Both the position numbers and the translations under genes were made by a program. Under the pieces are notes generated by a model. The model did not search any database and had not been told where the DNA came from. It saw only the letters and a program-made list of their open reading frames with translations. This document shows, piece by piece, positions 1-57,963 of a stretch of DNA of 64,000 nucleotides. The stretch spans positions 41,067 to 105,066 of the forward strand of contig JAWAFC010000002.1 of NCBI GenBank assembly GCA_038890815.1. The letters are read 5' to 3'. Numbering within the stretch: the stretch's first letter is position 1; each line of letters starts with the position of its first letter. The stretch is from Candidatus Micrarchaeia archaeon. Lineage in GTDB: Archaea > Micrarchaeota > Micrarchaeia > Burarchaeales > JACRGF01.

Positions 1-460
1 ATCATTTCGGCAACGATGTCCACACCGTAATCGAGCAGAGCCATGCTGGCGCCCAGCGTGATGGTGTTTTTCATGAGCACATCAACGCCCAGCTCTCGCG
101 CAATGCGTATGAAGGGCACGTTGAACAGCTCAATGTCTGCCCGCCCCACCTTGCTGGCGGCCTCACCGTCCTTCTCGCCATCGTAAATTAACACGCCACC
201 GGGCTTGAGCTCGCGCGCGTTCTCCTCAATCGTCTGAGCATCGAGCGCCACGAGGATGTCGCAACGGTCGCTGTGCGCGTGCACTGGCCGTTCGCTCACC
301 CTGACGAGAAAGGTGTTGTGCCCTCCCCTGATACGGCTGGGGTAGCCGCTGTCGGTGAAAACATGTAAACCTCCGCGTGCGCACGCCTTGGCGAAGGTCA
401 GGCCGATGGAGGCTATGCCATAGCCTGCCTCCCCTCCGATCTTCCAAACTACGTCCGTCA
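1..460 (-). CDS. 2-oxoacid:ferredoxin oxidoreductase, gamma-type domain. Either a PorG/KorC-like subunit or the N-terminal domain of a fused alpha subunit; the 5'-partial gene continues beyond the window start.
   Basis: Reverse-strand translation from ATG (complement 458-460) gives MTDVVWKIGGEAGYGIASIGLTFAKACARGGLHVFTDSGYPSRIRGGHNTFLVRVSERPVHAHSDRCDILVALDAQTIEENARELKPGGVLIYDG... with no stop before position 1. The G-x-G-x-G nucleotide-binding-like motif and overall pattern match the gamma domain of pyruvate/2-ketoacid ferredoxin oxidoreductases. The listed ORF 226-447 is in a different frame and is rejected. Confidence 0.7.
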
Positions 461-532
461 TCTGTCTAAACCCCATTCGCTTAACTCAAACTATGTTTAA
501 ATGCATTCGTGTTCGGCAAAAGGCTAACAAAA

Positions 533-787
533 TTAGATTATCTTCTCGCCCGTATCTTTCTTAAATAGGTGGATGACATTCACGGGACAGGAATCGGCCG
601 CGCTCTTGTTGCACTCATAGTCCTTCTCCTCAATCTCACGCTCCTCCCAGCCATCCTCGCGCTGCCTGCCGTCTTTCAGCACGCTCTTGCCATCCTCGCC
701 CATGCTCCAGAACTCGGGGCACACGGTAGCACAGGCGGCACAACCAATGCAGTTTGGCCGGTCATGCTCAATCCTGTAACCTGGCAT
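533..787 (-). CDS. fdx: Single-cluster [4Fe-4S]/[3Fe-4S] ferredoxin (Pyrococcus Fd-like), the likely redox partner of the adjacent oxidoreductase.
   Basis: 84 aa containing CIGCAACATVCP and a distal C-x9-CP motif (DYECNKSAADSCPVNV), the signature of small archaeal ferredoxins. Co-directional with the oxidoreductase gene and immediately upstream of it. Confidence 0.7.
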   Translation of the reverse strand: MPGYRIEHDRPNCIGCAACATVCPEFWSMGEDGKSVLKDGRQREDGWEEREIEEKDYECNKSAADSCPVNVIHLFKKDTGEKII

Positions 788-2080: not shown

Positions 2081-3229
2081 ATGAAAGGGGTACCGCCGAA
2101 CGTTTTTTTCCTCGGGCTGGTGAGCCTGCTCAACGACATCGCCAGCGAGGCGATTTTCTCAGTGCTGCCGGCCTTCATGTCGGCCGTGCTGCGCATCGAT
2201 TATGCTGCCATCGGGGTGATCGAGGGGGCTGCCGAGAGCGCGGCGAGCCTTCTCAAGCTGGCCGCGGGGTGGGCGAGCGATAGATGGAGAAGGAGAAAGC
2301 CAATTGTGCTGTTTGGGTATGCGCTGTCGGCTTTTGTAAAGCCCCTCTTCGCGCTGACAACGGGTGTGGCCGATGTCGCGGCCATTCGCGTGCTTGACAG
2401 GATTGGAAAAGGAGTGCGCACCTCGCCCCGCGATGCGCTGGTGGCCGACAGCACCCTTAAGAAGTTTAGGGGGAAGGCCTTCGGCTTTCACAGGGCCATG
2501 GATACGCTGGGCGCGGTTGCAGGCCCTCTGCTGGCCTTTGCCTTTCTCTCCTACTTCGGGACGAGCGAGGCGAGCTACCGAAGCATGTTTCTGCTCACAA
2601 TAATACCGGGCCTGGCCAGCCTGTTGTTGTTGTGGTTTTTTGTGAGCGAGAGAAAAGCGAGAGGGGGAAGGGCGGTGCGGCTGCTCGATTTCTCTTTCCT
2701 GAGCGCTGAGGCCAGGGCCTTCATGCTCGCAGTTTTCGTCTTCTCGCTTGCCAACTATTCGTATGCATTTCTGTTGCTGAGGGCTGGCGAGCTTGGAGCG
2801 GGCACTGCCTTCCTGCCGCTCCTCTACCTCCTTTACAACATCGCGTATGCCTCGCTGGCAGTCCCCGCAGGCACGCTGGCAGACAGGATCGGTGGAAAAA
2901 TTGTGCTGGCCACGGGCTGGTTGGCCTTCATCGCCGTTGGGGTCGGATTTGCGCTGGCGGGCGCTTGGTGGCAGGCCTTGCCGCTTTTTGTGCTTTATGG
3001 GTGTTTCAGCGCTGTGCATGAGACAGTTGTCAGGAGCCAACTCTCGCTGATGGTAGCGCCCGCACGGAGGGGTAGCGCGATGGGGGCGCTGAATCTCCTG
3101 CTGGGGATTGGGGCGCTGCCTGCCAGCGCTGTGATGGGCTGGGTGTGGAGCGCATGGGGTGCGAGCGCGGCCTTTGCCCTGAGCGCGGGCATTGCAGCCG
3201 CCGCACTGCTACTGCTTGCCAAGCGATAG
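2081..3229 (+). CDS. MFS-type transporter
   Basis: 382 aa, ~12 predicted hydrophobic helices, and a D-R-x-G-R-R-like loop (ASDRWRRRKP) typical of the MFS loop 2-3 motif. Confidence 0.7.
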   Translation: MKGVPPNVFFLGLVSLLNDIASEAIFSVLPAFMSAVLRIDYAAIGVIEGAAESAASLLKLAAGWASDRWRRRKPIVLFGYALSAFVKPLFALTTGVADVAAIRVLDRIGKGVRTSPRDALVADSTLKKFRGKAFGFHRAMDTLGAVAGPLLAFAFLSYFGTSEASYRSMFLLTIIPGLASLLLLWFFVSERKARGGRAVRLLDFSFLSAEARAFMLAVFVFSLANYSYAFLLLRAGELGAGTAFLPLLYLLYNIAYASLAVPAGTLADRIGGKIVLATGWLAFIAVGVGFALAGAWWQALPLFVLYGCFSAVHETVVRSQLSLMVAPARRGSAMGALNLLLGIGALPASAVMGWVWSAWGASAAFALSAGIAAAALLLLAKR

Positions 3230-12606: not shown

Positions 12607-12909
12607 ATGGGCATACTCGATCTGTTGCTGGGCAAAAAGGAAACTACGAGAGGGCTGTGGTGTCTGCGCTGCAAGTCCTACATCCCTGAGGGAAGCGAGG
12701 AGTGCCCGCGCTGTCATGCCAAAGTCAGCGAGATGTTCAAAATAACCTGCCCGAACTGCAAGAAGGAGATCGCTTGGAATGCAAAGCTCTGTCCGCACTG
12801 TGGAAAGAGTTTCATCGAAACAGAGCAGACCTTCAGGTGCCCGGTATGCGGCTATGAGGCTGGATATAGGATGAACCAATGTCCTGTGTGCAACACGCCG
12901 TTAGTTTAG
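12607..12909 (+). CDS. Multi-zinc-ribbon (double zinc ribbon-like) protein
   Basis: 100 aa with four CxxC pairs (CLRC..CPRC, CPNC..CPHC, CPVC..CPVC). It starts 1 nt after the stop of the upstream secreted-protein gene. Confidence 0.55.
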   Translation: MGILDLLLGKKETTRGLWCLRCKSYIPEGSEECPRCHAKVSEMFKITCPNCKKEIAWNAKLCPHCGKSFIETEQTFRCPVCGYEAGYRMNQCPVCNTPLV

Positions 12910-13583
12910 CTCCCTTTCCTCAGATAAGTTCTGAAGAAATACAGCGAGGCGATGACTGTCGCCACGGCTGCGATGGTTATGGCGGGCGCTGCCATCTGGC
13001 TGAAGGACTCAAGCGCGAAGGCCACGGATTTTGGGGGCGCGCCGGCCACGGCCGTCTTGGCGCTCACCGCAAACGCGCTCGCCCTCTCCGAATCATTCTG
13101 TGCAAGCGCCAGCACAGCAAGCCTTACATAGCCCTCTGCTTCCTCCGTGTCGAGCCCCTGCCTGCTCGCTCTCACTATGCTGTCATTGGCCTCAGCGATG
13201 AGCCGGAGCGCCAGCGCGTGCTGTGAGGGTGAGGGAAGAGGCTTGGCATTGCCCACCTCAATCCTCTGGGGCTGGCCCGACTGCCGAGCGAAGCCATCGG
13301 CGCTGCAATCGCACTTCCATGTGTGATTGCCAGCGGACAGAAACACCGAGCGTGTGAAGGAGGGTGAGCGCACGTCGTAGGAAGAGGAGTCCACAACGAT
13401 GTCGCACTTCCCGCCCGGCACCGCCCCACCCGCATAGCGGTAGCTGCATGTGAGCGAAACCCAGCCCGGCGAAGGCAACGAGGATGGCACGGCCTGCTGG
13501 AACAGCGTCGTGGGCACGTCAACCGGGGCATGCTCTGCGAAGGACAGCGCGATGCACGCCAGCGCGAGCAGAATTTTCAGCAC
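12906..13583 (-). CDS. Secreted/membrane-anchored protein, unknown function
   Basis: Sec-type signal peptide MLKILLALACIALSFA, N-x-S/T sequons, and a single C-terminal TM helix followed by RKGS. Confidence 0.45.
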   Translation of the reverse strand: MLKILLALACIALSFAEHAPVDVPTTLFQQAVPSSLPSPGWVSLTCSYRYAGGAVPGGKCDIVVDSSSYDVRSPSFTRSVFLSAGNHTWKCDCSADGFARQSGQPQRIEVGNAKPLPSPSQHALALRLIAEANDSIVRASRQGLDTEEAEGYVRLAVLALAQNDSERASAFAVSAKTAVAGAPPKSVAFALESFSQMAAPAITIAAVATVIASLYFFRTYLRKGS

Positions 13584-13618: not shown

Positions 13619-14109
13619 TGTTCGCGGGCATAGACCTGGCGGCGAAAGAGAAAAATCCTTCCGCAGCCTGCCTGCTGGGCAGGAGGGTGCAATGCGCCAC
13701 GCTCCACTCCGACAGGGAGATAATTGCATGGGCGGCGGCCGCAAGGCCCGCGCTCATCGCGCTTGATGCGCCGCTCTCTCTTCCAAGCAAAGGGAGCCTG
13801 CGGGAAGTTGAGAGGGAGTTGATCGCGCGCGGCCTGCGCGTTTTTCCAATTCGGGGGGCCATGCGCGCGCTGGCGAGAAGGGGGATGAGGCTGAGAAGAA
13901 AGCTCGCTGCCCTCGGCATACGGGTCATCGAGGTGCACCCGCGCTCCTCCCTGCTGGCACTCCGTCGACTCGGTCAAAACATCCGCTTTCCTGCGGCCTG
14001 CAGGAGCGAGCACGAGAGGGATGCCTGGCTGGCCGCACTCACGGCAAAGCTTTTTGCCAAAGGGAAGTGTGAGGTGATAGGCAGGGCATTCGCACTGCCC
14101 AGTGCCTAG
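13619..14109 (+). CDS. DUF429-like (RNase-H-fold, predicted nuclease) protein; start uncertain (GTG 13619 proposed)
   Basis: VFAGIDLAAKEKNPSAACLLG...IALDAPLSLP resembles the DUF429 N-terminal catalytic block. A TTTTATTTG/TTAAAAAA box at 13591-13613 directly precedes the GTG. The track ORF starting at 13450 overlaps a convergent gene. Confidence 0.4.
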
Positions 14110-14219
14110 GGCGAGATTTGAACTCGCGACTTCCAGATTTCCCGTCATCGCCCGGGGCTCGGCACTCACATCGCGTGCGATATGAGTCTGGCGCTCTAAC
14201 CAGGCTGAGCTACCTAGGC
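14103..14219 (-). tRNA. tRNA-Met (CAU), elongator-type (G1:C72), with ~41-nt intron at canonical 37/38 position. Could alternatively be tRNA-Ile2 (CAU).
   Basis: Hand-folded. Acceptor GCCUAGG/CCUAGGC with discriminator A; D arm GCUC-AGCCUGGUUAG-AGCG; anticodon stem CCAGA/UCUGG with loop CUCAUA+intron; T arm GCGAG-UUCAAAU-CUCGC. No encoded CCA. Confidence 0.75.
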
Positions 14220-14251: not shown

Positions 14252-14662
14252 TCATCGCTCAAGGGCGAAGGATATCTGCTCGTATTCTCCGCCCGCGCGG
14301 GCGAGCAGGCGGGTGGTTGTGATTTTTCGCGTGGAGTGCGCCCCACACCCGAACTCGCGCGACCACATCCGCATGCTGACGCGGAGGCAGGCGCCCAGCC
14401 TATTCGCGATGCCGCTGAGCTTTGCCTCGGCCTCCGCCCATCTGCCGGCTGCAAGCTCATCGAAAACCCCTAACCCATGCGCCACTTCAATGGCATCATC
14501 GAGAAGCTGGCTGTCGTAGAGAAAGGCATGTCTCTGCGCGAGCGCGCCCTGGGTGAGCGAGAGAAATGGCATGAGGAGCACGATGGCCAGCAGGATGCTG
14601 AGCAGGGCCTCAAGCATGAGCGCAAAACCCCTATCCGCAAACGATGAGCGCATCGAGCTCAC
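14252..14662 (-). CDS. Prepilin-like protein with class III (type IV pilin) signal peptide
   Basis: N-terminus MSSMRSSFADRG|FALMLEALLSILLAIVLLMPF has a basic residue-Gly cleavage context followed by a hydrophobic helix. It is last in a tandem of four such genes. Confidence 0.5.
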   Translation of the reverse strand: MSSMRSSFADRGFALMLEALLSILLAIVLLMPFLSLTQGALAQRHAFLYDSQLLDDAIEVAHGLGVFDELAAGRWAEAEAKLSGIANRLGACLRVSMRMWSREFGCGAHSTRKITTTRLLARAGGEYEQISFALER

Positions 14663-15032
14663 CTGCGACGAGCACTATGCGGCGAATGCACCGGCCGCTT
14701 GCCCCACGCTGGCTCTCGAGGCTTGCGGTGACATTCAGGCGCGCCAGCTTTGCGCCGAATGCCGCCAGCTTGGCCTTATCGATCCTGTTGGGATGCACGA
14801 CCGGCGGCAGCATCTCGCTCTCAGCTGCCTCTGCCTTGACGAGGCGGTCGGCCACGGACAGCAGCAATGCCTCTCTCTCCCAATCCTGCACCGAGGCCGC
14901 CGAGCGCTCATAGAATAGGAAGAGAACGGCAGATACGATGTGGAGCAGCAACAGCACGGCTAGGCTGGCGAGCAGCGCGTCGCTGGCGAGCAGCGCGCCC
15001 TTAGACTTTCTGAAGGAAATATAAGCTCGCAT
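14631..15032 (-). CDS. Prepilin-like protein with class III signal peptide
   Basis: N-terminus MRAYISFRKSKG|ALLASDALLASLAVLLLLHIV; overlapping neighbours give an operon arrangement. Confidence 0.5.
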   Translation of the reverse strand: MRAYISFRKSKGALLASDALLASLAVLLLLHIVSAVLFLFYERSAASVQDWEREALLLSVADRLVKAEAAESEMLPPVVHPNRIDKAKLAAFGAKLARLNVTASLESQRGASGRCIRRIVLVAGELDALIVCG

Positions 15033-15324
15033 TCAGCGCACCCAGCACTTTCGTTGAGGCGGCCTTCCCCCTGACATAGCAGCTGACCTGGTCCACGGGT
15101 GTCGTGCAATTTCCGAGATCGAATGAATGCGAGAACTGGCGAGCATTTGTCGCCAGCGCATCCTGAATGGCAGCGCTGCGAATGGAGATTGCCTTCGCCT
15201 CGAGCGCGGCGTGCTTTTCCGAAAGGCTCCGCGCGCTCGCGCTCAGGCTGCTGATCAACAGGAAGAGGAAGGCCAGATAGGCGGCCAGCACGACCATCGC
15301 CTCGACCGAAGACTGCCCTCTCAA
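15001..15324 (-). CDS. Prepilin-like protein with class III signal peptide
   Basis: N-terminus MRG|QSSVEAMVVLAAYLAFLFLLISS, with Gln at +1 and Glu at +5, reminiscent of type IV pilins. Confidence 0.55.
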   Translation of the reverse strand: MRGQSSVEAMVVLAAYLAFLFLLISSLSASARSLSEKHAALEAKAISIRSAAIQDALATNARQFSHSFDLGNCTTPVDQVSCYVRGKAASTKVLGALNASLYFLQKV

Positions 15325-15782
15325 TAACTCACCACTACCCCCGCGGGGATGAAGGAGGTGAAATTTGCCTCTGGCGAGCGCAACACGATGATGATGTCGC
15401 TCATGAGCGTGAGGCGGCGCGCATGCGGCTCAGCCACGATGAGGCGTGCGCACGCCTCGAGCGGCACGCCCTCGGCACCGCACCACAGGCTCGCATTGAA
15501 GCCATGAAAATCGCCCTGAGTGAGCGTGTGCTCTAGCGAGCGGAGGCGCCAGGCGAGCGCAGCCGAGATGTCGTGGGAAGCCGACAACGCTCGTGCATCC
15601 TGCCGAATGCCATCGAGCAGCGCATGCTTGGCGTCCATCTCGGCGGCATGGGCGCGCTCGATGAGCAGTAGCTCCCACTCGGCAGAGCGCGCCATGCGCA
15701 CGTTATTGAGATAGCTGTGGGAGGCGGCGAGCAGCGCGCTCAGCGCGATGGCGACAAGGAGAAAACTGAAAAAACCTCTCAC
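15321..15782 (-). CDS. Prepilin-like protein with class III signal peptide (first gene of the tandem)
   Basis: N-terminus MRG|FFSFLLVAIALSALLAASHSY. An A/T-rich box (ggatataaaatg, 15800-15812) lies upstream. Confidence 0.5.
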   Translation of the reverse strand: MRGFFSFLLVAIALSALLAASHSYLNNVRMARSAEWELLLIERAHAAEMDAKHALLDGIRQDARALSASHDISAALAWRLRSLEHTLTQGDFHGFNASLWCGAEGVPLEACARLIVAEPHARRLTLMSDIIIVLRSPEANFTSFIPAGVVVSY

Positions 15783-15835
15783 GCAAAGCTAGGCGGGAAA
15801 GGATATAAAATGCTTGTGAGCCAAATTTACGAGGC

Positions 15836-15910
15836 AGCGGGGTAGGGTAGCCTGGAGTGCCCGCTGGGCTCATAACCCAGAGATCGGTGGTTCAAATCCA
15901 CTCCCCGCTA
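15836..15910 (+). tRNA. Initiator tRNA-Met (CAU)
   Basis: 75 nt, no intron. A1:U72 terminal pair and three consecutive G:C pairs (GGG/CCC) at the bottom of the anticodon stem, which are archaeal initiator hallmarks. T arm GGUGG-UUCAAAU-CCACU. Confidence 0.8.
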
Positions 15911-16351
15911 TCGTCTTTCTCTCTCCTCGAGCAGCGCGATGAGGCGGGCAAGTTGCTCGCTGTTCTTAGCGAGCAGCGCGGCGATGAGCCCTTCCTTGTC
16001 CTCTATCTTTCTGAGCGCGCGCCCGGCGCAAATCCTCACCCACTCTCGCTCATCCTCGAGCGCCAGAATGAGCGCGGCCACGCCTGCGGGCGCACGCAGC
16101 TCGCCGAGCAGATAACAGGCGGCCAGGCGCTCGCGCGGTCCGCCCGAGCGGATGAGCTCCTTGGCCACTTCCACCGAGGCTGGCGCGAGGCGGGCGAGCT
16201 TTCTCAGCGCGCGCTCCACTTCCGGCCTTTTTTCCCACCCTTCGCGCGGGGGGTCTTCTATGAAGGCGAGCAGCGAGCCGAAAATCACACGCGCCTTCTT
16301 GAACTTGCTCTCATCGAGCGCACGTTCGCCCTTGGCGGCAGCCAGCCGCAA
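15908..16351 (-). CDS. HEAT-repeat (PBS-lyase HEAT-like) protein
   Basis: 147 aa with repeated ...RxxAxxALGxxGxxxAVxALxxALxDE... units. It lies 12 nt downstream of the large membrane/coiled-coil gene. Confidence 0.55.
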   Translation of the reverse strand: MRLAAAKGERALDESKFKKARVIFGSLLAFIEDPPREGWEKRPEVERALRKLARLAPASVEVAKELIRSGGPRERLAACYLLGELRAPAGVAALILALEDEREWVRICAGRALRKIEDKEGLIAALLAKNSEQLARLIALLEERERR

Positions 16352-16362
16352 TTCCTCGGTTG

Positions 16363-19300
16363 TCAGCTCCTCCCCTCCAGCAGCGCTGCAATCTCCCTCG
16401 CTGCCTCGCTCATCGCGATGAGCACAAACCCCATATCCTCCTGCGGCTTTATCAATGTTATGAGGATGGCCATGCGACCGGCTGCGAGCAACACGAGCCG
16501 GCCCTCTTTCGTGGCGATGATGACATCTTTGACCGCCCCGCGGTGCAGCTCGCTCGAGACCATCTCGGACTTCGCCGCAATGCGGGCCGCCATGGCTGCT
16601 ATGCTCTCGGCATTCATCTCTAGCGGCAGCGTGCTGGCTATCATGAGCCCATCTCGCCGCACCACGGCCGCGGCCTCAATCTTCTGCGAGGCCACGAGCC
16701 GCTGCAGTATGACCTCGAACTGGAACTTTGAGACGGGTGCGGGCCTGAGGCGCACGAGCGCGTTGTTTTCTATGACAAAGCTTTCGGCCGGGTGCTCGGC
16801 CAAATATCGCTCTATGGCCCACTTCCTCCATTTTTCGGGCACGGCCACCAGCATCGACTCAGTGACGGTATCCTGTCTGCGCAACAGGGAGGCGATGTGC
16901 GCGCTCCAGGCAGGCCAGTTGGACAGCATGGCGAGCTTTTCGCGCAGGCTCGCCAGCGCGCCCTCGGCGGCCGACAGCGCGGCCTCTATCTGCTCGCGCA
17001 CGCCTTCGACGCTGTCGAGGGCAGACAGAGCTGCGCGCAGGCGCTCCAGGTCGATGGCATACAACGTCTCGTGCTCGATGCCTACATCAATGCCTTCGGC
17101 AAGACACCTGTTGATCAGCCCATCGGCTTCCTTCAATGTCTGCTCGAGCGAGGCCAGCCTGCCCTGTAGCGCCTCAAATGCCTCAAGTCTTTCGGCCATG
17201 CCCTTCTCGAGCGCTGTGGCCCTCTCGACAGCGGCGTCTATGTCTTTCGCGACCGGTTCACGCGCCTTGAGCGCGGCGCGCAACCTCTCAAGGTTGATCG
17301 ACCTCGCGGCTGTTTCCTCCCGCCATGCGCTGAGACCGACTTTTTTTGCTTTGGCGATCATTTCCTCTACGCGGCTCAGCGCTGCAGCCGCCAGCGCGAT
17401 GCGGTCGGCCTGATTGCGAAAATCTTCAATGACATCGCCGATGTGCGCCTCCAGCCTCTCAAAGGAATTCTCTGTGGCCGTCAGCAGCTCATCGGCGGCC
17501 GCGAACTTCCCGGCCCTGAATAGCTCGCGCACGCGGGCCATCGCGCCCTCCAGATCGAGCGCGCCGACTTCCTTCGCCTCTGCGCTCAGGTCTAACCCAA
17601 GCTTTGCTCCCTGCGCGAGCATGTGTTGGATCACATCGATGCGCTTGGCCAGAATGTCGCGCCTTTCGGTGAGGCCCCTGAAGGCCTCGAGCTTGTCACG
17701 CAAGAGAGGTTTGACCTTGTCATAGCGCGAGGCCTCGGCCTCGAGCGACTTCGCCGCTTCATCGAATGCCCTGCGGCCGGCGGCATCGATGATGTCGGGC
17801 AGCGCGGCCTCTATTTCCGACAGCGTCCTTTCCTCGGCAGTCGTATCCAACCAGCCGCGCGCGGGCTCCAGCTCCTTCCTATCGCCCTCAATGGCCCTGT
17901 GCAGCGCCTCGGCCTTCTCCCGGATCTTGGCGGCCACATCGGACTTGCAATAGCCGCACACATCGCTCACCACGCTTATTGAGCGGCCACATTCCGGGCA
18001 CCGGAATGTCCTGCCCAGCAAGAGCTTGCGCTCCTCGCCTTTCTTCGTCGCAGCCTGGGCGAGCGAGGTCAGCTCGGCCAGCTTTTGGCTGAGGATGGTT
18101 TCGGCTTTGGCCAGCTCATCGGCGCTCCACGCTCTCTTCGCCTCCTCCAGCGCAGCGCTGGCTGGCGAGGCCGTGAGAGCCTTTTGTTCCTCCCTTATGT
18201 CAGCTCCGATTTTTTCTGCCACCTCAAGCGCCGAGCGCGCGGCCGTCTCGGCCTTCTGCACTTTCTCGGCAAGGCCTAACAGCCTCTCCTGCGCGGCCAG
18301 CTTTGCTTCAAGTGCGGCCTTCGCCCTGTCGACCGCGCTGCGCGCCCTTTGCAATTCTATGTTGGCCTGGGCGAGGTTGGCAGCTCTGCAGGCCGCCTCG
18401 CAGGCATCGAGAATGGCGAGCGCGCCACGCGCGGCCTTCTCTTCGGCATCGAACACAAAGCCCTGCCGGCGCGGCTCACGTGTACGCTCGAGCAGCAGCT
18501 CGAGCGACTCGCGCGCGCTCTTGGCCGCCTCGAGGATCTGCGCTTCGTACATGACGGCGCGCACGCCAGTCGGCAGAGGCTTCTCGTAATACCGCGGGCC
18601 CAGCACCGCGCCCTTACAGAAGTCCGCAATCAGGAAGTATAGGGAGAGGAGGCCCAGAAAGATGGAGAACGAGCCAGTGGTTTTGATTAGATCGGCGTTC
18701 AGCGCTTGTAGGAGATCGCTCTCGGCCGTGAGAGGTTGCGGGGGAGGAGCAGTGAGGTAGATGGCCGCAAGCCCGAGGATGGTGAGGCTCATTCCGATTG
18801 CCAGGTAGGCGCCTCTCTGCGTGCCCCCGTGGCCCGCAAATGCATAGATGGCCTCCTTGATGTCCTTTCTGGTGCGCACGGCATTCACGAGAGCGAGGAT
18901 GAACGAAATTCCGCTCCACACTAGCCACAGCGCGACAAGCATGGCTGCGGCAACGATGCCTATGGCCACATGGAAGTTGGAGAGCGAGATGAGGGAGGAC
19001 AGCATGCCCGAGTAAATCCCCTTGACGAGGATGAGCAGGGGCGAGGCCATGGGCTCAAGGCGCGTGAGCGAGAGCTGGGGTTTGCTGAGCCCTTGCGCCC
19101 ACGCCAGCCAGCCTTCGGCTGGCTCGCGGACATCCCTGATGAGGTATACGATTTCGCTCTCGCCCGCCCGCCCCCCGATGTTGCTTTGCCTCCAGCTGAC
19201 AACGAAAGGTGGGCGTGCCGAGATGCCGGTGTAATTCATTCCAAACTCGATTTGGGATAGCTCGGATGCCAAGGGCACGGTTTCGATGAGTGTGAGGTCG

Positions 19301-20130
19301 GAGAATGCCGAGCCTTCGGACATGGAGAGGGTCAGGCGCACGAGCACTGTGTAGCGCTCTGGGGGCTTTGGTGCGCGAGGGGGTGCAGCTTCTGCCGTCC
19401 GGATGCTCGCGATGAATGTCCTCCTGGCATCCTCGAGCAGGTTGAGGCCGATCGGAACCGGCGCGCATACCCCGAGCGCGCTCAGCGAATTGGTCGAGAT
19501 GCCAGCGGCCGAGGCTCTGGCGCGCTCGAAATCGCCCGCTATCCTGTTAAGCTCGCCGAGCGAGGGGCTCGTCTGCACCGTCCTCAGGTCGGCATACAGC
19601 GCGCTCAGAGCCTCATCGAGCCCATGTGAGGCGCGCGAGAACTCGAGCACCGCATGGACGAGCGCATCGCCATAGAGCGCGAGCTTTGCCGCGCACTCTG
19701 GTGATGCGGCGCAGGCCGCCCTGCAGGCCGCGCGGTCCGCACAGGGTGTCTGCACGCCGGCCGCTTTTCGGCAGGCCATCTCGGCAGGCCCGTCCGGCGT
19801 TTGGGAAAAGCGCGAGGCATTGAATGCCGTGAGCAGGCGGTGCGTCTCGGCGAGCTTTGCAGGGTCGAGGAGAAATGACTCGGTGAAGTTGAACCCCTCT
19901 TCCCGCGCCTCAATGACGCCCGATACGAGCACCTGCCTGCTCAGGCTCATCTGCGGTGTGATGTTGTAGGGCTCGAAAAAAAATGAAAACCAGTCCGGCG
20001 CGCCATCCCCGTCGGCATCGCCGCTTGTCCAGTTGGCCAGCACTTCCCGCTCGGGCGCGATGAGCTCACGCCTCTCGAGGCAGCCTGCGAGAAACACGAG
20101 CAGCACGACGAGCGCGAGTTTTTTGCGCAT
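16363..20130 (-). CDS. Large (1255 aa) membrane protein. It has an N-terminal lipoprotein-like signal, an extracellular domain, ~4 TM helices, ~500 aa of coiled coil with an embedded zinc ribbon, and a C-terminal Roadblock/LC7 domain.
   Basis: N-terminus MRKKLALVVLLVFLAGC. TM segments sit around residues 395-520. Long heptad-like Ala/Glu/Lys/Leu-rich segments follow. The zinc ribbon is CPECGRSISVVSDVCGYC. The C-terminus ...AAVVRRDGLMIASTLPLEMNAESIAAMAARIAAKSEMVSSEL...RLVLLAAGRMAILITLIKPQEDMGFVLIAMSEAAREIAALLEG matches the Roadblock/LC7 fold pattern. Confidence 0.65.
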   Translation of the reverse strand: MRKKLALVVLLVFLAGCLERRELIAPEREVLANWTSGDADGDGAPDWFSFFFEPYNITPQMSLSRQVLVSGVIEAREEGFNFTESFLLDPAKLAETHRLLTAFNASRFSQTPDGPAEMACRKAAGVQTPCADRAACRAACAASPECAAKLALYGDALVHAVLEFSRASHGLDEALSALYADLRTVQTSPSLGELNRIAGDFERARASAAGISTNSLSALGVCAPVPIGLNLLEDARRTFIASIRTAEAAPPRAPKPPERYTVLVRLTLSMSEGSAFSDLTLIETVPLASELSQIEFGMNYTGISARPPFVVSWRQSNIGGRAGESEIVYLIRDVREPAEGWLAWAQGLSKPQLSLTRLEPMASPLLILVKGIYSGMLSSLISLSNFHVAIGIVAAAMLVALWLVWSGISFILALVNAVRTRKDIKEAIYAFAGHGGTQRGAYLAIGMSLTILGLAAIYLTAPPPQPLTAESDLLQALNADLIKTTGSFSIFLGLLSLYFLIADFCKGAVLGPRYYEKPLPTGVRAVMYEAQILEAAKSARESLELLLERTREPRRQGFVFDAEEKAARGALAILDACEAACRAANLAQANIELQRARSAVDRAKAALEAKLAAQERLLGLAEKVQKAETAARSALEVAEKIGADIREEQKALTASPASAALEEAKRAWSADELAKAETILSQKLAELTSLAQAATKKGEERKLLLGRTFRCPECGRSISVVSDVCGYCKSDVAAKIREKAEALHRAIEGDRKELEPARGWLDTTAEERTLSEIEAALPDIIDAAGRRAFDEAAKSLEAEASRYDKVKPLLRDKLEAFRGLTERRDILAKRIDVIQHMLAQGAKLGLDLSAEAKEVGALDLEGAMARVRELFRAGKFAAADELLTATENSFERLEAHIGDVIEDFRNQADRIALAAAALSRVEEMIAKAKKVGLSAWREETAARSINLERLRAALKAREPVAKDIDAAVERATALEKGMAERLEAFEALQGRLASLEQTLKEADGLINRCLAEGIDVGIEHETLYAIDLERLRAALSALDSVEGVREQIEAALSAAEGALASLREKLAMLSNWPAWSAHIASLLRRQDTVTESMLVAVPEKWRKWAIERYLAEHPAESFVIENNALVRLRPAPVSKFQFEVILQRLVASQKIEAAAVVRRDGLMIASTLPLEMNAESIAAMAARIAAKSEMVSSELHRGAVKDVIIATKEGRLVLLAAGRMAILITLIKPQEDMGFVLIAMSEAAREIAALLEGRS

Positions 20131-20180
20131 CGTTCCCTAATCGGATTCTGATTTTAAATACTGTCGGAGATTAGTTTTGC

Positions 20181-20290
20181 GCGGGGGTGCCGGAGCCTGG
20201 TCAATCGGGCAGGCCTTAGGATTCGATGGCTGAAGGATGAGAAAGCCTGTGCGCTTAGGCGCTGCAAGAGTTCAAATCTCTTCCCCCGCA
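20181..20290 (+). tRNA. tRNA-Leu (UAG) with ~23-nt intron at 37/38 and long variable arm
   Basis: Acceptor GCGGGGG/CCCCCGC+A; anticodon stem CAGGC/GCCUG with loop CUUAGG[intron]A; variable arm UGCGCUUAGGCGCUGCA; T arm AAGAG-UUCAAAU-CUCUU. No CCA. Confidence 0.75.
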
Positions 20291-20295: not shown

Positions 20296-20448
20296 TCACT
20301 TCTTTGCGCGGATTTCCCTTCGCTTCGGGCGAAGCCAGCGATAGCCACACTTGCGGCACTTCTCCGCGCCACGCTTGTTGCGCGCCTTGCACTTCCTACA
20401 AATCCAGATCTGAGCGAGAAAGGCATCCGCGAGAGCGTGCTTGCCCAT
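20296..20448 (-). CDS. rpl40e: 50S ribosomal protein L40e
   Basis: The 50-aa product MGKHALADAFLAQIWICRKCKARNKRGAEKCRKCGYRWLRPKRREIRAKK carries the L40e zinc-ribbon signature C-x2-C...AEKCRKCGY..LRPK. The longer track ORFs here are N-terminal over-extensions. Confidence 0.8.
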   Translation of the reverse strand: MGKHALADAFLAQIWICRKCKARNKRGAEKCRKCGYRWLRPKRREIRAKK

Positions 20449-31716: not shown

Positions 31717-33486
31717 CTAAGCCAGCAGGTGCAGGCCGAGCGATAGTTTGAACACGCCGAGCGAGAGGGGAGCGAGGATGAGGAAATACACGAGCGCCTT
31801 GCGTGGGGAGCCCTCCTGAAAAGCCACAAGCAAGCCGGACAGGAAAGCATAGATAATGAGGTAGGCCTGCACGGCATCGAGCGTGGCCGAGAAGAGCGTG
31901 AGGCGCTCAGTAGCCGGCAGCGCGGAGAAGAGCGCGCCTGCTGACAGATTGAGCTCTGCCACCATGTTGGCAACGAGCGCGAGTATGAAGGGAACGAGCA
32001 CACTGCCTCCTATCAGCATCGTGTACTTCTGCATGGCCAGCAGCGCCGCGCGCTCCCTCACGAGCGCGGCAAAGCCCATGATGTCTTCGGCCGTCTCGCG
32101 CACGGCATGTTCGAAAGCCGCACCGGCCGACCAGCCAGCCGCGAGAAGGTGTGTTGCACGTGAGAGCAACAGCGAGTCATTGCGTTCGCCTATCTCAAGC
32201 ACAGCCCGCTCAAGCGGCATGCCCGACCTGACCTGGTTGAGGGCCATGCGGAACTCCTCGCTGAGGGGCCCGAAGCCAGAGCCGGCAATGCTCTCGAGAA
32301 TTCTCTCTACCGAAACACCCCTGGGAAACGAGGAGGCCTGAAACAGCGCATCGGGCAGAAACCTCTCAAGCTCTTTTGTGCGCTGCTCGAGCCTGTAGGA
32401 AAGAGAGAGATAGGTGAGGGCTGGCAGTGCCAGGGGAATTGGGGAGTAGGCCCGCATCGCTGGAGCAGACAGCGAAAGCGCAAGCAGAAGGAGAAAGCAC
32501 AGTATGCCTACGGCGAGGGAGAGGAGGATGAGGCGCTTAGCTCCAAAATGGGCGAAAGGGGCAGGGACCACGGCATCGAGGCGAGCCATTTCCTCCTCGG
32601 AAAGGGGGGATGAAAGGGAGCTGTGCAGAAAGGGTGGGGCTTTCATGCGTATCGCCATGATGACAAGCAGGCCGAGCAAGGGAAAGACCACGAGATAGGC
32701 GAGCCAGATATCGCTCGCGGTGAAAATGGGCGAAAAAATCGCCGAACCCACCACAACGTATGCCTGAAAGAGTGCGGGAATGACGCACGCCACGGCGAGA
32801 AAAAGCAGGCCGAGAAATGACAGCGCAGCCGCATACTCACGCGCGCCAGCTTTCTGAACATCGATGAGCTCATCGGCCAGCCGCTTGAGGGCCTCACCCT
32901 GCCCGCCATGCTGATAGGCTGCCACGAGGTGGGCGACAGCGCGCCTAAATGCCAGCGAGCCCACGCGGCCGGCCAGCCTGCGCAGGGCATCGGGAAAGGT
33001 GGCCCCACCTTTCTTTACCTCATTGAGCACGAGCGCGAGCTCGGCCGAGGTCTGGTAGCGCATGCGCGCCGCGCGCTCGATGGCCTTCTCGAAAGGCGTA
33101 TTGAGCGAAAGCTCGGCGGCCAGAAAACGAAGGAGGAAAGGAAGCTCTGCCTCCAGCTGCGCAGCCCGCCTTTTCGCCTGAAATGCTGGCAAGGATTTGA
33201 GCACGAGGAAGATGAGGGAGAAGGATAGCAGGGAGAGCGACAGGGATGTCGGCGCATCGCGCAAGAGGAAGTAAAACGCGCCGAAGAGAACAGAGGCAAG
33301 GAAAAGCGAGAGTAGGAGGGAACGGAAGAGATAAGAGCGCGCGGGGATGCCCATGCCTGCCTGCTCAAGCTGCGACTGTAGGCACGCGGTTTCCTGCCTA
33401 GTGAAAAGCCAGCTCACGCGAGGTTTTAAATTGGCGGTAAATTTATGCTTGACTGCGATTATCGAAAAACGAGCTCTTCCCTGCAT
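31717..33486 (-). CDS. Type II secretion system F-domain membrane protein (FlaJ/TadC-like platform protein); start uncertain (33486 or ~33354)
   Basis: Two T2SS-F-like repeats (e.g. ...ALRRLAGRVGSLAFRRAVAHLVAAYQHGG...), ~9 TM helices, and a length typical of archaeal FlaJ/TadC homologues. No adjacent secretion ATPase is in the window. Confidence 0.55.
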   Translation of the reverse strand: MQGRARFSIIAVKHKFTANLKPRVSWLFTRQETACLQSQLEQAGMGIPARSYLFRSLLLSLFLASVLFGAFYFLLRDAPTSLSLSLLSFSLIFLVLKSLPAFQAKRRAAQLEAELPFLLRFLAAELSLNTPFEKAIERAARMRYQTSAELALVLNEVKKGGATFPDALRRLAGRVGSLAFRRAVAHLVAAYQHGGQGEALKRLADELIDVQKAGAREYAAALSFLGLLFLAVACVIPALFQAYVVVGSAIFSPIFTASDIWLAYLVVFPLLGLLVIMAIRMKAPPFLHSSLSSPLSEEEMARLDAVVPAPFAHFGAKRLILLSLAVGILCFLLLLALSLSAPAMRAYSPIPLALPALTYLSLSYRLEQRTKELERFLPDALFQASSFPRGVSVERILESIAGSGFGPLSEEFRMALNQVRSGMPLERAVLEIGERNDSLLLSRATHLLAAGWSAGAAFEHAVRETAEDIMGFAALVRERAALLAMQKYTMLIGGSVLVPFILALVANMVAELNLSAGALFSALPATERLTLFSATLDAVQAYLIIYAFLSGLLVAFQEGSPRKALVYFLILAPLSLGVFKLSLGLHLLA

Positions 33487-43849: not shown

Positions 43850-45184
43850 ATGAACTATGCAAGCCTCAGGAAAAAAATCAGCGAGAAGAGCGCGCTCGTG
43901 TGCGTGGTTGGCCAGGGCTACGTTGGTATTCACCTTTCGGTCGCTTTTGCGCGCGCCGGCTTCCGCACAACAGGCTTTGACATAAGCGAAAAGCGCATTG
44001 CCGAGCTGTCACGCTGTTATGACAGCGCCGGGGAAGTCGGCGAGGACACGCTCCGCGAGCTGCAGGCGAGCGGAAAGCTCGCCTTTACCACGAATCCAGC
44101 TTCCATCAGCGAGGCTGATTTTATCTTGCTCGCCCTCCCCAGCCTCCTCACAAAGAAAAAGGAGCCGGACCTATCAGCTATTCGCGCTGCAAGCGAAACT
44201 GTCGGAAAGCATATGAAGCGCGGCGCGGTTGTCGTGCTCGAGTCAAGCGTCTACCCTGGTGTGACTGAGGAAGAGGTTCTTCCGCGCCTGGAGGAGCTCT
44301 CTGGCATGAGAGCTGGCATCGATTTCTCTGTAGGCTATTCGCCGGAGCGTGTGAATCCGGGCGACCCAGAACATTCGTTAGAGAAAATTGTGAAGGTGGT
44401 TGCCGGCCTGGATGACGAGACGACCGATCTCCTTGCTTTTCTCTATGGCCACATAACAAAGGCTGGCACATTCAAGGCCAAAAACATCAAGACTGCCGAG
44501 GCTGCCAAAATCATCGAGAACATTCAGCGCGACCTCAACATTGCGCTCATGAATGAGTTCGCCATCATCTTTGAGCGCATGGGCCTTAGCATATGGGATG
44601 TGTTAGAGGTTGCGAAGACGAAATGGAACTTCATACCATTTAAGCCAGGCCTTGTGGGCGGTTATTGCGTACCCGTCAATCCCTATTACCTCGTATACAA
44701 GGCGCGAAGGCTCGGCTATCGCCCAAGAGTCATGCTTGCCGGCCGAAGCACGAACGACTCCATGCCAAAACACATTGTCAGTTTGACAGAGAAGGCGCTT
44801 GCGAGGGTGGGGAAAAAAACAAAGGGCTCGCGCGTGCTGGTGCTTGGCCTGAGCTTTAAGGAGAACGTACGTGATCCGAGGTTTTCCCCTGTCAAGGAGG
44901 TTATTAAGGGTCTGAAGAGAAAAGGCTGTGCTGTGCTCGCGCATGACCCCCTCCTCTTTAAGTTTGATGTGGAGAAGGAATTTGGAGTAAAAAATCTTGA
45001 TAATTTTGGGATGGCTAGTGGTGTGGATGCAATAATTCTTGCTACAGGTCACAACGAATTTAGGAAAATACCTCTGAGCGAGCTGAGGCGAATCTGCAAC
45101 GAAAAGCCTGTGTTGGTTGACACGAGGAATTTCTTCAGCGAAAAGGAAGGGGAATCGGCCGGATTCATAGTAGTGCGACTATAG
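43850..45184 (+). CDS. UDP-N-acetylhexosamine 6-dehydrogenase (WbpO/TviB/WecC-like nucleotide-sugar dehydrogenase)
   Basis: 444 aa. It has the N-terminal Rossmann VCVVGQGYVGIHLSVAFA, a catalytic-Cys region, and the C-terminal VLVLGLSFKENVRDPRFSP block typical of the UDP-Glc/GDP-Man dehydrogenase family. Confidence 0.7.
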   Translation: MNYASLRKKISEKSALVCVVGQGYVGIHLSVAFARAGFRTTGFDISEKRIAELSRCYDSAGEVGEDTLRELQASGKLAFTTNPASISEADFILLALPSLLTKKKEPDLSAIRAASETVGKHMKRGAVVVLESSVYPGVTEEEVLPRLEELSGMRAGIDFSVGYSPERVNPGDPEHSLEKIVKVVAGLDDETTDLLAFLYGHITKAGTFKAKNIKTAEAAKIIENIQRDLNIALMNEFAIIFERMGLSIWDVLEVAKTKWNFIPFKPGLVGGYCVPVNPYYLVYKARRLGYRPRVMLAGRSTNDSMPKHIVSLTEKALARVGKKTKGSRVLVLGLSFKENVRDPRFSPVKEVIKGLKRKGCAVLAHDPLLFKFDVEKEFGVKNLDNFGMASGVDAIILATGHNEFRKIPLSELRRICNEKPVLVDTRNFFSEKEGESAGFIVVRL

Positions 45185-45203
45185 GTCAAGCGCAATCCAT
45201 TGA

Positions 45204-47072
45204 CTAAAATTCAATTTTAAAGGCATCGCTCCATAGCTCAAGCTCAAGCAGCGCCCACAGCTTGTAGGAATACGCGGCCCTACCTTTCCTGTGCTCATTG
45301 AGCATCCTGAACACTTCGTCCTTGCTGAACAGTTTTGCGCATACTCTACCTTCTGCTATTTTTTGCTCAAGGAACTCGCCAACCTCTTTCTTGAACCATG
45401 GACCGAGCGGAATTCCGAACCCACGTTTTTTCCTTTCCAGAATCTCCAGCGGAAGCCACGGCTTAAGGGCGCGCTTGAACACATGTTTAGTCTCGAGCCC
45501 ACGGAGCTTAAGGTCGCTAGGAATTGTCGCGGCAAACTCAACAAACTCGTGATCGAGCAATGGTGCTCTCGCCTCAAGACTGTGCGCCATGCTCGTTCTG
45601 TCTACTTTTGCAAGAATATCATCGGGCAAATAGGTATTGAAATCTGCGTACATCATCTTGTCCAGTTGTGTCTTTGCATTGCGCTTTGCAAAACAGGCCG
45701 TAATCGATTTCTGGGACGCCGCCTTTTTTAAGCTTGCGAGCCTGCCCTCTTTATACAGCCTTTCTCTTTCCTCGTTGCGATAGAACGACACAAGCTCGGC
45801 ATATCTCTCCGGAAGTGGGAGTCGTGCGAGGGCTTCGAACTTCTCTGCGCGCTGCGCGAGCAGGTGCATCCCAACAAAAGAGAGTGCTTTTTTTGCGGCC
45901 GCCACGCCGATAGCTCTGAGTGGTTGTGGGATTTTTGCATATCCTCTAAGCAACATATCAATAACATACCTATCATAGCCAGCGAAATTCTCATCGCCAC
46001 CATCCCCAGACAACACAACCGTCACATAGCGTCTCGCAAACTCTGAGACCATATAAGTCGGAACTGCACTTGCATCTGCGAAAGGCTCGTCTAAGTACCA
46101 TGCAATTTTTGGAAGATTTTTTATCACGTCTTTTGGATAGAGAATCTTCTCATAATGCTTTGTCCCTAGATGCTCGCTTACCTCTCTTGCGAAAGAGAGT
46201 TCGCTGTAGTCACTTTCCTCGAATCCGATGGTGAAGGTCTTGACATCCTCCGTAGCAACTTTCGTCATCGCAGCGACAACCGCGCTGGAATCTATCCCTC
46301 CCGAAAGAAAGGCGCCGAGCGGAACATCGCTTATAAGGCGCATGCTCACGCTCTCTTTGAGCCTCGAAATAATTTCATTCTCCCAAGCCTCCATACTCAT
46401 CTTCAGGGGTCTGTACCATATATCCCAATATCTATGCAACTCCATCCCTTTTTTTGTCACCAATGCATAATGTGCTGCCTGAAGTTTCTTGGCACCTAAA
46501 AAAATCGTTCTCGGCGCTGGAATATACTGCAGTGCTAAGAACTCGTCGAGCGCGCGCCAATCAATAACCTTACTGATCACGCCACTTTCACTCAGCGCCT
46601 TAAGCTCGGATGCAAAATAAAAAACTCCATCGCGCCACGAATAATAAAGTGGCTTTTTCCCTAATCTATCTCTAGCCAAAAAGAGCATCTTTCTCTTTGC
46701 GTCCCACAGTGCGAATGCAAACATCCCACGCAGACGGGACAGGCAGGCTGTCCCCCACTCCTCATATGCATGAACAATTGTCTCTGTATCGCTCTTTGTT
46801 GTAAAGCGATGTCCACGTAGTTCAAGCTCTTTACGGAGTTGTTGGTAATTGTATATCTCCCCATTGAAAACGATATGGACATCCCCATCCTCATTGCTCT
46901 GTGGTTGATGGCCAGTCTTAAGATCTATAACACTTAGCCTACGCATGCCAAGCGCAACGTTTCGCTCAGCAAATATACCCCAGTCGTCTGGCCCACGGTG
47001 ACGTAAGAGCGCTAGCATACGCTTCAGAATGTTTGCGTCGCCAGGACCCAGAAAACCCGCGATGCCACACAC
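45204..47072 (-). CDS. asnB: Asparagine synthetase-like glutamine amidotransferase (AsnB/WbpS-type), paralogue 1
   Basis: 622 aa. The N-terminal MCGIAGFLG has Cys2 as the Ntn nucleophile. The central ...SGGIDSS... PP-loop ATP-pyrophosphatase motif is LSGGIDSSAVVA. Confidence 0.8.
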   Translation of the reverse strand: MCGIAGFLGPGDANILKRMLALLRHRGPDDWGIFAERNVALGMRRLSVIDLKTGHQPQSNEDGDVHIVFNGEIYNYQQLRKELELRGHRFTTKSDTETIVHAYEEWGTACLSRLRGMFAFALWDAKRKMLFLARDRLGKKPLYYSWRDGVFYFASELKALSESGVISKVIDWRALDEFLALQYIPAPRTIFLGAKKLQAAHYALVTKKGMELHRYWDIWYRPLKMSMEAWENEIISRLKESVSMRLISDVPLGAFLSGGIDSSAVVAAMTKVATEDVKTFTIGFEESDYSELSFAREVSEHLGTKHYEKILYPKDVIKNLPKIAWYLDEPFADASAVPTYMVSEFARRYVTVVLSGDGGDENFAGYDRYVIDMLLRGYAKIPQPLRAIGVAAAKKALSFVGMHLLAQRAEKFEALARLPLPERYAELVSFYRNEERERLYKEGRLASLKKAASQKSITACFAKRNAKTQLDKMMYADFNTYLPDDILAKVDRTSMAHSLEARAPLLDHEFVEFAATIPSDLKLRGLETKHVFKRALKPWLPLEILERKKRGFGIPLGPWFKKEVGEFLEQKIAEGRVCAKLFSKDEVFRMLNEHRKGRAAYSYKLWALLELELWSDAFKIEF

Positions 47073-47081
47073 ACAAAACCC

Positions 47082-48032: not shown

Positions 48033-48060
48033 GAGAAAATTTTGGCGATGAAATTAAAAA

Positions 48061-51856: not shown

Positions 51857-51921
51857 AGCTACTGTGCTGTTGTGGCCGAAGACTATCCCTAAAATATAAA
51901 TAGTTCCACCCGGTACTTATT

Positions 51922-53097: not shown

Positions 53098-53098
53098 A

Positions 53099-56528: not shown

Positions 56529-56530
56529 CA

Positions 56531-57959: not shown

Positions 57960-57963
57960 CTTT

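Follow-up and report, generated by a model that had tools for sequence, protein, structure and literature searches.

A 64,000-nt stretch of DNA from a Candidatus Micrarchaeia archaeon (contig JAWAFC010000002.1 of GenBank assembly GCA_038890815.1; hereafter the window) encodes on its reverse strand a 1255-residue protein that combines a lipobox signal peptide, an exported domain, three predicted transmembrane (TM) passes, a modular helical stalk and a C-terminal Roadblock/LC7 domain. We refer to this protein, the product of the open reading frame (ORF) at 16363-20130 (-), as the target and to its homologues as the family. The family is specific to the Micrarchaeota and occurs throughout that phylum. 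We tentatively propose that the target may be a dimeric Roadblock scaffold, anchored in the membrane, that works together with a surface structure resembling a type IV pilus. The architecture and the distribution of the family are unusual and well established, whereas this functional reading rests on analogy and on the genes adjacent in about a quarter of the loci. The features of the target, with their positions in the window, are as follows.

16363..20130 (-): target ORF, complete, 1255 residues, ATG start, stop codon at 16363-16365
20151..20160 (-): TATA-like box TATTTAAAAT, about 25 nt upstream of the target ATG, read directly from the sequence
20080..20130 (-): residues 1-17, predicted signal peptide with lipobox L-A-G-C (Cys17), from sequence and family alignment
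19051..20079 (-): residues 18-360, predicted ectodomain, a beta-sandwich (strands in 19-71 and 260-358) with a DxDxDGxxD motif at 38-46
19402..19869 (-): residues 88-243, Cys-rich helical bundle inserted in the sandwich (C120, C130, C136, C140, C146, C222)
18601..19041 (-): residues 364-510, membrane region, an amphipathic helix (364-383) followed by three predicted TM passes (386-418, 439-458, 483-510)
16936..18600 (-): residues 511-1065, cytoplasmic alpha-helical modular stalk, helical in the AlphaFold2 (AF2) model at low to moderate confidence, units mapped by profile
17947..18000 (-): C4 zinc ribbon CPEC (711-714)...CGYC (725-728), within the full stalk unit
16729..16935 (-): residues 1066-1134, pre-Roadblock domain WPxW...IPxxWRxWAxxKYxxEH, about 65 conserved residues in the family alignment
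16366..16728 (-): residues 1135-1255, Roadblock/LC7 domain of the long MglB/RB type with a C-terminal helix, from Pfam and Protein Data Bank (PDB) profile matches

The target ends in a Roadblock domain

A first-pass annotation, made by a model from the sequence alone, had placed a Roadblock/LC7 domain at the C-terminus and proposed a profile search as a check. That search was run against two resources and the domain was found in both. The Pfam model Robl_LC7 (PF03259) matched residues 1139-1224 of the target with E=1.9e-13 and 50.4 bits (cut-off 23), covering positions 3-88 of the 91 in the profile. In the PDB, a family profile built from the last 190 residues matched solved Roadblock proteins along their entire length: 9jue_D (2e-21), 7f8m_A (1e-18), 7yh1_D (2e-13), an Asgard Roadblock protein (PMC10933270), CvnB5 (3leq, 1e-9) and, more weakly, dynein LC7 (about 1e-3) and MglB (0.04-0.06). 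LAMTOR2 was also among the weak matches. The closest solved relatives of the target Roadblock are archaeal Roadblock proteins. In the structural model of the target, the order of secondary-structure elements fits the alpha-beta-beta-alpha-beta-beta-beta(-alpha) arrangement, in a region modelled from a two-sequence alignment with a predicted local distance difference test (pLDDT) score below 50.

Immediately before the Roadblock lies a conserved domain that was detected in 51 members, with W1075, L1094, P1098 and R1102 near-invariant. This pre-Roadblock domain has no sequence counterpart in Pfam, NCBIfam or the PDB. Its helix-strand-helix-helix-hairpin order in a low-confidence model tentatively suggests a winged-helix-like fold.

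The family is phylum-wide and confined to Micrarchaeota

An exhaustive HMMER search of 1.84 billion cluster representatives with residues 1-560 as the query returned 70 proteins at E<=0.001, 32 of them below 1e-10. The full layout (lipobox signal peptide, ectodomain, membrane helices, helical segment, pre-Roadblock and Roadblock or Roadblock-like domain) was found in 48 of these, and most of the other 22 are fragments. Members fall into length classes of about 600-650, 750-810, 1060-1260 and 1640-1760 residues, and every one with a named source comes from Candidatus Micrarchaeota, Micrarchaeia or Gugararchaeum. The distribution was also surveyed with a degenerate DNA pattern for the pre-Roadblock motif WRxWAxx[KR]YxxEH, applied to one genome per species across 185,579 species. 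There were 23 matches. All 17 archaeal matches carry the family gene, and 16 of them are titled Micrarchaeota, Micrarchaeia or Micrarchaeum; no match was seen in any other archaeal phylum among the species scanned. None of the six bacterial matches encodes a family member, and these were set aside as chance. Two other searches recovered little. A word-indexed homologue search returned the target and one relative of 80% identity when run with the full-length query and with a 48-sequence profile, and nothing when run with the N-terminal 560 residues, probably because coiled-coil words saturated its candidate list. A search of genome contigs with the two-sequence alignment found no related loci.

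The combination of domains had gone unrecognised in the first-pass annotation, and indeed neither Pfam nor NCBIfam holds anything for it beyond the Roadblock; with 70 representatives, however, it is no one-off. Databases name the family by its Roadblock domain alone. A protein 100% identical to the target, from a Candidatus Micrarchaeia metagenome-assembled genome (MAG), is annotated merely as 'roadblock/LC7 domain-containing protein', and no account of this family, or of any Roadblock protein integral to the membrane, turned up in our literature search.

The gene is intact and under purifying selection

The ORF was found exactly as first described, as 1255 codons at 16363-20130 on the reverse strand. 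The first-pass annotation had itself raised the prospect that so long a frame might be a fusion artefact of several genes. Such an artefact would consist of genes joined by frameshift errors in assembly or annotation, or of a non-coding frame in GC-rich DNA. What speaks for it is a prior expectation only, since very long ORFs in MAGs can be chimeric, together with the many spurious opposite-strand ORFs that overlap the target. A second, independent MAG (locus L002) carries a 1260-residue orthologue that is 80% identical, collinear from end to end, free of frameshifts and flanked by the same neighbours. Codon-level comparison with this relative gave a ratio of nonsynonymous to synonymous substitution rates (dN/dS) of 0.17 overall and of 0.09-0.26 across nine segments, the helical region included, with the lowest values (0.09-0.13) in the pre-Roadblock and Roadblock regions. 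Purifying selection thus acts on the whole ORF. The collinear relative and the low ratios in every segment show the target to be one real gene and no fusion product. The same domain order also recurs in the 48 full-layout cluster representatives, which come from many assemblies, and the N-terminal half is predicted with a pLDDT of 92. We regard the chance of an artefact as practically nil.

Upstream of the ATG, the TATA-like box is probably the promoter of a leaderless or short-leader transcript. The source organism is an archaeon and a scan of the region for bacterial promoters and terminators was accordingly uninformative.

An exported domain of no known fold and three membrane passes

The lipoprotein-like signal peptide recognised at the outset (LAGC) holds up across the family. 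The target, with F-L-A-G-C17, fits the lipobox pattern [LVI][ASTVI][GAS]C, and G16 and C17 are kept in at least 90% of the 48-62 members aligned; lipidation is a prediction. The sequon-rich extracellular domain of about 370 residues that had been claimed is likewise borne out, with all five N-x-S/T sequons and six Cys of the target lying within residues 26-360. Family ectodomains are acidic in 96% of members and have a median of six Cys. Sequons are about three times as dense in the ectodomain as in the C-terminal part (0.97 versus 0.31 per 100 residues). The N-terminal module was modelled by AF2 from a 62-sequence alignment with a pLDDT of 91.8 and a predicted template modelling (pTM) score of 0.78, and no fold match for this ectodomain/3-TM module was found in the PDB. 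Nor does the module have a sequence counterpart in Pfam, NCBIfam or the PDB.

The Cys-rich bundle is missing from the class of about 600-650 residues. On its own, as FNxSR...C...TGxDxPC...C..AC...C, it is common to P0047, P0052, P0057, P0062, P0067, P0069 and P0070, which are otherwise unrelated sequon-rich proteins with Sec signals and C-terminal anchors. Its sharing by unrelated surface proteins suggests a mobile extracellular domain. Short-class proteins in L012, L014, L017, L018, L021, L028 and L031 carry the conserved string 'G[SR]E[DN][IV]GKT', which resembles a Walker A motif, at residues of about 140-170. It is probably no P-loop, since it belongs to the beta-sandwich predicted to be extracellular; its counterpart in the target lies near G323-Y329.

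For the membrane region the first-pass annotation had counted about four TM helices. The AF2 model does contain four helices (364-383, 386-419, 439-458 and 481-510). The helix at 364-383, however, is amphipathic, with a family mean Kyte-Doolittle hydropathy of 0.96 and TM-like values in just 17% of members, and we therefore revise the count to three passes plus one amphipathic helix. Loop charges point the same way: the loop at 419-438 is net positive in 88% of members, that at 459-482 carries a net negative charge in 88%, and the stretch following the last TM helix a net positive one in 85%. With an exported N-terminus, four passes would place the zinc ribbon and the Roadblock outside the cell, and the family data speak for three. 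A predicted topology with the N-terminus outside, three passes and the C-terminus inside is supported by loop charge, hydropathy and the distribution of sequons and Cys across the family.

The stalk is built from repeated helical units

Between the membrane and the pre-Roadblock domain, the target had been described as a continuous coiled coil of about 500 residues interrupted by a zinc ribbon. The AF2 model instead shows helices of 8-58 residues with turns between them and a beta zinc ribbon, and repeat mapping resolves the region into modular helical units of about 110 and 273 residues. On the target, the stalk-unit profile detects a partial unit at 526-671, a full unit at 676-946 and another partial unit at 955-1093, or about 2.5 copies of a unit of about 273 residues. 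The zinc ribbon itself (CPECG...CGYC) is present as claimed: its four Cys are invariant in the eight aligned stalk units, and the Pfam models Zn_ribbon_3, DZR and DUF7560 match it below threshold (E of about 0.07-0.1).

A BLAST self-comparison of the target gave no significant internal repeats, and the repeats become visible only through longer paralogous members. In P0013, the longest, three zinc ribbons recur at intervals of 273-274 residues, and comparison of the copies with each other gives E=2e-63 to 3e-24. The number of sub-units of about 110 residues rises from one in the class of about 750 residues to seven in P0007, P0013 and P0016, and across the family the stalk ranges from one such sub-unit to seven or more. 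In residues its length spans 110 to more than 1100. The caution usual for helical repeats applies to the iterated stalk profile, for which the initial single-sequence matches were already significant. Searched against PDB sequences, the stalk unit returned coiled-coil noise and generic zinc ribbons only, with no HP0958-like match. P0007 is a protein of 1720 residues from Candidatus Gugararchaeum adminiculabundum (L008, 10001-15163) with seven stalk sub-repeats and a pre-Roadblock domain at 1418-1482; its C-terminal end consists of an E/K/A/P-rich low-complexity segment and another helical unit, in which a Roadblock is undetectable.

A conserved cassette of pilin-like genes lies downstream

The genes around the target are listed below.

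20181..20290 (+): intron-containing tRNA, bounding the unit upstream; Rfam 40.6 bits (cut-off 29) in a focused search
15908..16351 (-): HEAT-repeat gene, 147 residues, TTG start, 11-nt spacer with a conserved CCGAGGA; HEAT_2 E=1.8e-7, above cut-off
15836..15910 (+): tRNA-Met, on the opposite strand between the two-gene unit and the pilin cassette
15321..15782 (-): pilin-like gene A, 153 residues; TATA-like TTTTATAT at 15803-15810
15001..15324 (-): pilin-like gene B, 107 residues, canonical class-III N-terminus MRGQSSVEAM...
14631..15032 (-): pilin-like gene C, 133 residues
14252..14662 (-): pilin-like gene D, 136 residues, or 133 from an internal start at 14653

The prepilin cluster to which the target had been assigned is real and evolutionarily conserved, with class-III (prepilin-type) N-termini at four genes downstream. 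Genes B, C and D carry the motif, and gene A a variant of it, at all four loci compared (the window, L002, L003 and L004); processing is predicted. Pfam support for the cassette is weak: the L004 orthologue of B matches Class_IIIsignal at E=0.01, and the L003 orthologue of C falls just short of the cut-off with DUF7263 (E=9.6e-6). In these four loci the A-B-C-D genes are orthologous and keep one order, although the large proteins are just 29-33% identical and the other flanks differ.

The census of gene neighbourhoods that the first-pass annotation had recommended was carried out on 24 distinct family loci (the window and 23 related ones, 343 kb in total). Pilin genes recur within about 2.5 kb of the family gene in seven of the 24, six with the cassette and one with other pilins. 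Orthologues of gene A occur in the same order in L002, L003, L004 and L012; in L012 and L023 the cassette, oriented convergently, is found about 1.6 kb away from short-class genes, and other MRGQ-type pilin genes flank the family gene in L009 and L003. No pilin gene was seen in the other 17 loci, several of which have less than 1.2 kb of sequence on the relevant side; the neighbours of the family gene in these loci are housekeeping genes. This conserved prepilin context gives substance to the earlier suggestion of a scaffold for a surface structure.

The HEAT-repeat gene, by contrast, does not recur. Its domain assignment stands (see the HEAT_2 match above), and the distance of 12 nt first given for it is corrected to 11 nt: the gene has no Met codon, and the 80% relative has ATG where the window has TTG at 16351, which fixes the start. 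The target and the HEAT gene probably form a co-transcribed two-gene unit. Pairing with a HEAT protein is nevertheless no feature of the family: the gene is next to the family gene only in the window (L001) and in the 80% relative (L002), and it is absent beside the family gene in L003-L010.

The first-pass annotation had also remarked on the lack of a neighbouring GTPase. Among the credible ORFs of the 64-kb window we found none with a canonical Walker A motif, which is unusual for about 70 genes, and no ORF with the small-GTPase motif set G1+G3+G4 in the 343 kb of family loci, so this absence now extends to all 24. No pilus ATPase or platform gene directly adjoins a family gene; the window does contain a T2SSF (PilC/FlaJ-type platform) gene at 31717-33486 (-), of 589 residues (E=2.6e-17), which lies 11.6 kb from the target and has no adjacent secretion ATPase.

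Several other features of these loci were recorded. In L003, the locus of a relative of 33% identity, a TPR gene on the opposite strand takes the place of the HEAT gene, and immediately upstream of the large gene are a standalone Roadblock gene of 121 residues at 2215-2580 (+) and an extra canonical pilin gene at 2624-3082 (-), MNAKGQAAAEYL...; the standalone Roadblock is a candidate heterodimer partner. L004 encodes at 36-761 (-), 1.5 kb upstream of the family gene, a KaiC/RecA-like ATPase of 241 residues (PF06745, Walker A GTPGTGKT), of the same size and family as the archaellum/pilus accessory protein ArlH. In the window, the gene at 12906-13583 (-) encodes 225 residues with a signal peptide, sequons, a C-terminal TM anchor and a stalk-like 'RQGLDTEEAE...' helix-turn motif, and the gene at 12607-12909 (+) a multi-zinc-ribbon (DZR-type) protein of 100 residues; both are kept beside the cassette in L002, and double-zinc-ribbon proteins have been reported in archaeal type IV pilus loci. 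Directly after gene D lies a 117-nt intron-containing tRNA at 14103-14219 (-), which scored 60.8 bits in Rfam and was missed by ARAGORN. Neither ARAGORN nor the Rfam pass over the whole window detected the intron-containing tRNA upstream of the target. The intron-containing tRNAs and a free-standing 5S rRNA mark the window as archaeal. Between two tRNA genes is a 50-codon ORF at 20296-20445 (-), MGKHALADAFLAQIWICRKCKARNKRGAEKCRKCGYRWLRPKRREIRAKK, which we take to resemble ribosomal protein L40e, a small zinc ribbon; a 50-residue gene is called at the same place in L002. From 44000 to 64000 the GC content falls from about 0.60 to 0.45-0.52 over a surface-glycan biosynthesis island with several GT1/GT2/GT4 glycosyltransferases, three asparagine-synthase paralogues, a carbamoyltransferase, epimerases, a UDP-glucose dehydrogenase and a Polysacc_synt flippase. 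This island may have been acquired horizontally.

A possible scaffold for a pilus-like structure

Micrarchaeota live as host-dependent ectosymbionts, and little is understood of their cell biology or of their apparatus for host contact. The scaffold that we tentatively propose would operate as follows. In line with the predicted topology, the lipobox signal peptide exports the acidic, sequon- and Cys-rich ectodomain, and the three TM helices bring the chain back to the cytoplasm. There the Roadblock C-terminus would dimerise, as Roadblock domains generally do, into a platform for docking a cytoplasmic partner, which may be a small GTPase, another NTPase or a standalone Roadblock subunit. The length of the stalk would set how far beneath the membrane this docking takes place. 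The ectodomain would contact an external component, most plausibly the pilin-like proteins of the adjacent genes, and the target would couple this external side to internal positioning or regulation. The pilus-like structure could plausibly serve host contact, and the HEAT protein would be a lineage-specific accessory, probably co-translated.

An orthologous cassette beside the family gene in divergent lineages indicates that the system served is most likely type IV pilus-like, and the T2SSF platform gene 11.6 kb away in the window is a further point in favour. Archaeal type IV pilus loci often encode Roadblock/LC7 (arCOG02603), zinc-ribbon and coiled-coil proteins (Makarova et al. 2016, PMC4858521), the polarity of bacterial type IV pili is regulated by MglB (PMC9481161), Roadblock domains are dimeric platforms that bind GTPases (PMC10933270), and cultivated Micrarchaeota have two type IV pilus systems with a proposed role in host interaction (PMC5498576).

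A number of observations weigh against this proposal. Pilin genes are adjacent in just seven of the 24 loci, and the classes of 1640-1760 and about 750-810 residues sit among housekeeping genes. A tRNA or an opposite-strand gene lies between the cassette and the large gene, which implies separate transcription units. Neither a pilus ATPase nor a small GTPase was found near any family gene in the 343 kb. The Pfam Roadblock model reaches E<=0.001 in just 16 of the 48 full-layout members; the others are matched only by a family-specific iterated profile, which could drift, and are therefore termed Roadblock-like. P0007, from a near-complete genome, lacks the terminal Roadblock while it keeps the ectodomain, TM region, stalk and pre-Roadblock domain. 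The AF2 model of residues 500-1255, built from a two-sequence alignment, is poor (pLDDT 59, and below 50 in the Roadblock region), and a Foldseek search with it was meaningless.

A rival reading is a transmembrane receptor independent of pili, whose ectodomain would sense a host-surface or environmental ligand. The signal would travel along the three-helix membrane bundle and the stalk to the Roadblock, which would regulate a small GTPase encoded elsewhere, in the manner of a Streptomyces conservon or of Ragulator. Seventeen of the 24 loci have no pilin neighbour, the ectodomain has a conserved fold of its own that includes a Ca-binding-like motif and a Cys-rich bundle, and Roadblock proteins are known as GTPase regulators and platforms. 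As 328 of 749 prokaryotic MglB homologues lack a GTPase gene as neighbour (PMC4316618), the missing neighbour does not exclude one elsewhere. Such a receptor would nonetheless have no HAMP, kinase or other signalling domain detected in the Pfam and NCBIfam scans, a stalk of duplicated units ranging from 110 to more than 1100 residues is hard to square with the transmission of a conformational signal, no GTPase occurs in the 343 kb around family genes, and the conserved pilin cassette, present in six loci and in two orientations, would be left unexplained. We consider this receptor rather unlikely, with a chance of about one in four.

The cassette is equally unaccounted for if the protein is a structural tether between envelope and cytoplasm, with the ectodomain held in the S-layer or pseudo-periplasm, the stalk as a ruler or strut, and the Roadblock as a dimerisation or oligomerisation knob that has no NTPase partner, comparable to ArlX. 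A tether would suit a family that is phylum-wide, whose gene is typically a singleton among housekeeping genes with no GTPase nearby, whose stalk changes length stepwise by unit duplication, and one member of which dispenses with the Roadblock while the ectodomain, TM region, stalk and pre-Roadblock domain remain. It fits less well with the pre-Roadblock and Roadblock domains being the most constrained part of the protein and being kept in nearly all members, as constraint of that strength argues for a specific interaction rather than a generic knob. We regard the tether as unlikely, at about one chance in five.

The pilus-linked scaffold can be extended to a bolder and improbable scheme, in which the protein would be a single-polypeptide prokaryotic counterpart of Ragulator. 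Here a phylum-specific transmembrane 'ruler', its stalk growing by unit duplication, would set the depth of a Roadblock dimer that docks a GTPase or other NTPase, and would physically couple an external host-contact pilus or pseudopilus, made of the four minor-pilin-like proteins encoded next door, to the way in which ultra-small DPANN cells are organised inside.

Comparison with known systems

Roadblock/longin platforms underlie GTPase-controlled membrane identity in eukaryotes and cell polarity in bacteria, and archaeal Roadblock proteins are abundant and almost entirely uncharacterised. The family described here is a signature of the Micrarchaeota. Its well-predicted N-terminal module, with no solved relative, and its pre-Roadblock domain are candidates for new family definitions, and the repeated association of the family gene with a four-gene pilin-like cassette yields a concrete hypothesis, open to testing in the few Micrarchaeota in culture.

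The arCOG02603 proteins (PMC4858521) resemble the target in being archaeal Roadblock proteins genomically linked to type IV pilin-type genes. They are, however, small, soluble and single-domain, whereas the target Roadblock is the C-terminus of a 1255-residue protein with a lipobox, ectodomain, three TM passes and a stalk, and its neighbour is a four-gene pilin-like cassette without ATPase or platform genes. MglB of Myxococcus and Thermus shares with the target the long Roadblock type with a C-terminal helix and aligns with it over the full length. MglB is the Roadblock GTPase-activating protein of the small GTPase MglA, and MglAB controls type IV pilus polarity. MglB is a soluble homodimer of about 160 residues usually encoded within four genes of mglA (PMC4316618), while the target loci (64 kb and 23 further loci) are without a P-loop GTPase; by the presence of a coupled GTPase, the target is not an MglB-type system.

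The eukaryotic Ragulator/LAMTOR complex has in common with the target the concept of a Roadblock-fold platform at a membrane that recruits a cytoplasmic partner, in its case the Rag GTPases. It consists of five subunits, is lipid-anchored through LAMTOR1 and, unlike the target, has no transmembrane segment, ectodomain or stalk; the likeness is a functional analogy, with no homology demonstrated beyond the fold. In the Streptomyces conservon a membrane sensor works together with a Roadblock protein, and CvnB5 is a significant profile match. The conservon consists of four separate proteins: the histidine-kinase-like sensor CvnA, the Roadblock CvnB, CvnC (DUF742) and the GTPase CvnD. No HATPase, DUF742 or GTPase domain was found in the target and its neighbours, and the target is thus no conservon. 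ArlX (FlaX) is the membrane-anchored coiled-coil scaffold of the crenarchaeal archaellum motor, a machine related to type IV pili, and has a long cytoplasmic helical region. Unlike the target, it has one N-terminal TM helix and no ectodomain, zinc ribbon or Roadblock, and its likeness would be one of function only. The prokaryotic Roadblock proteins known to us are small and soluble. A Roadblock tethered to the membrane, and joined to an ectodomain of no known fold by a stalk with a roughly tenfold range of lengths, would amount to a novel deployment of this module.

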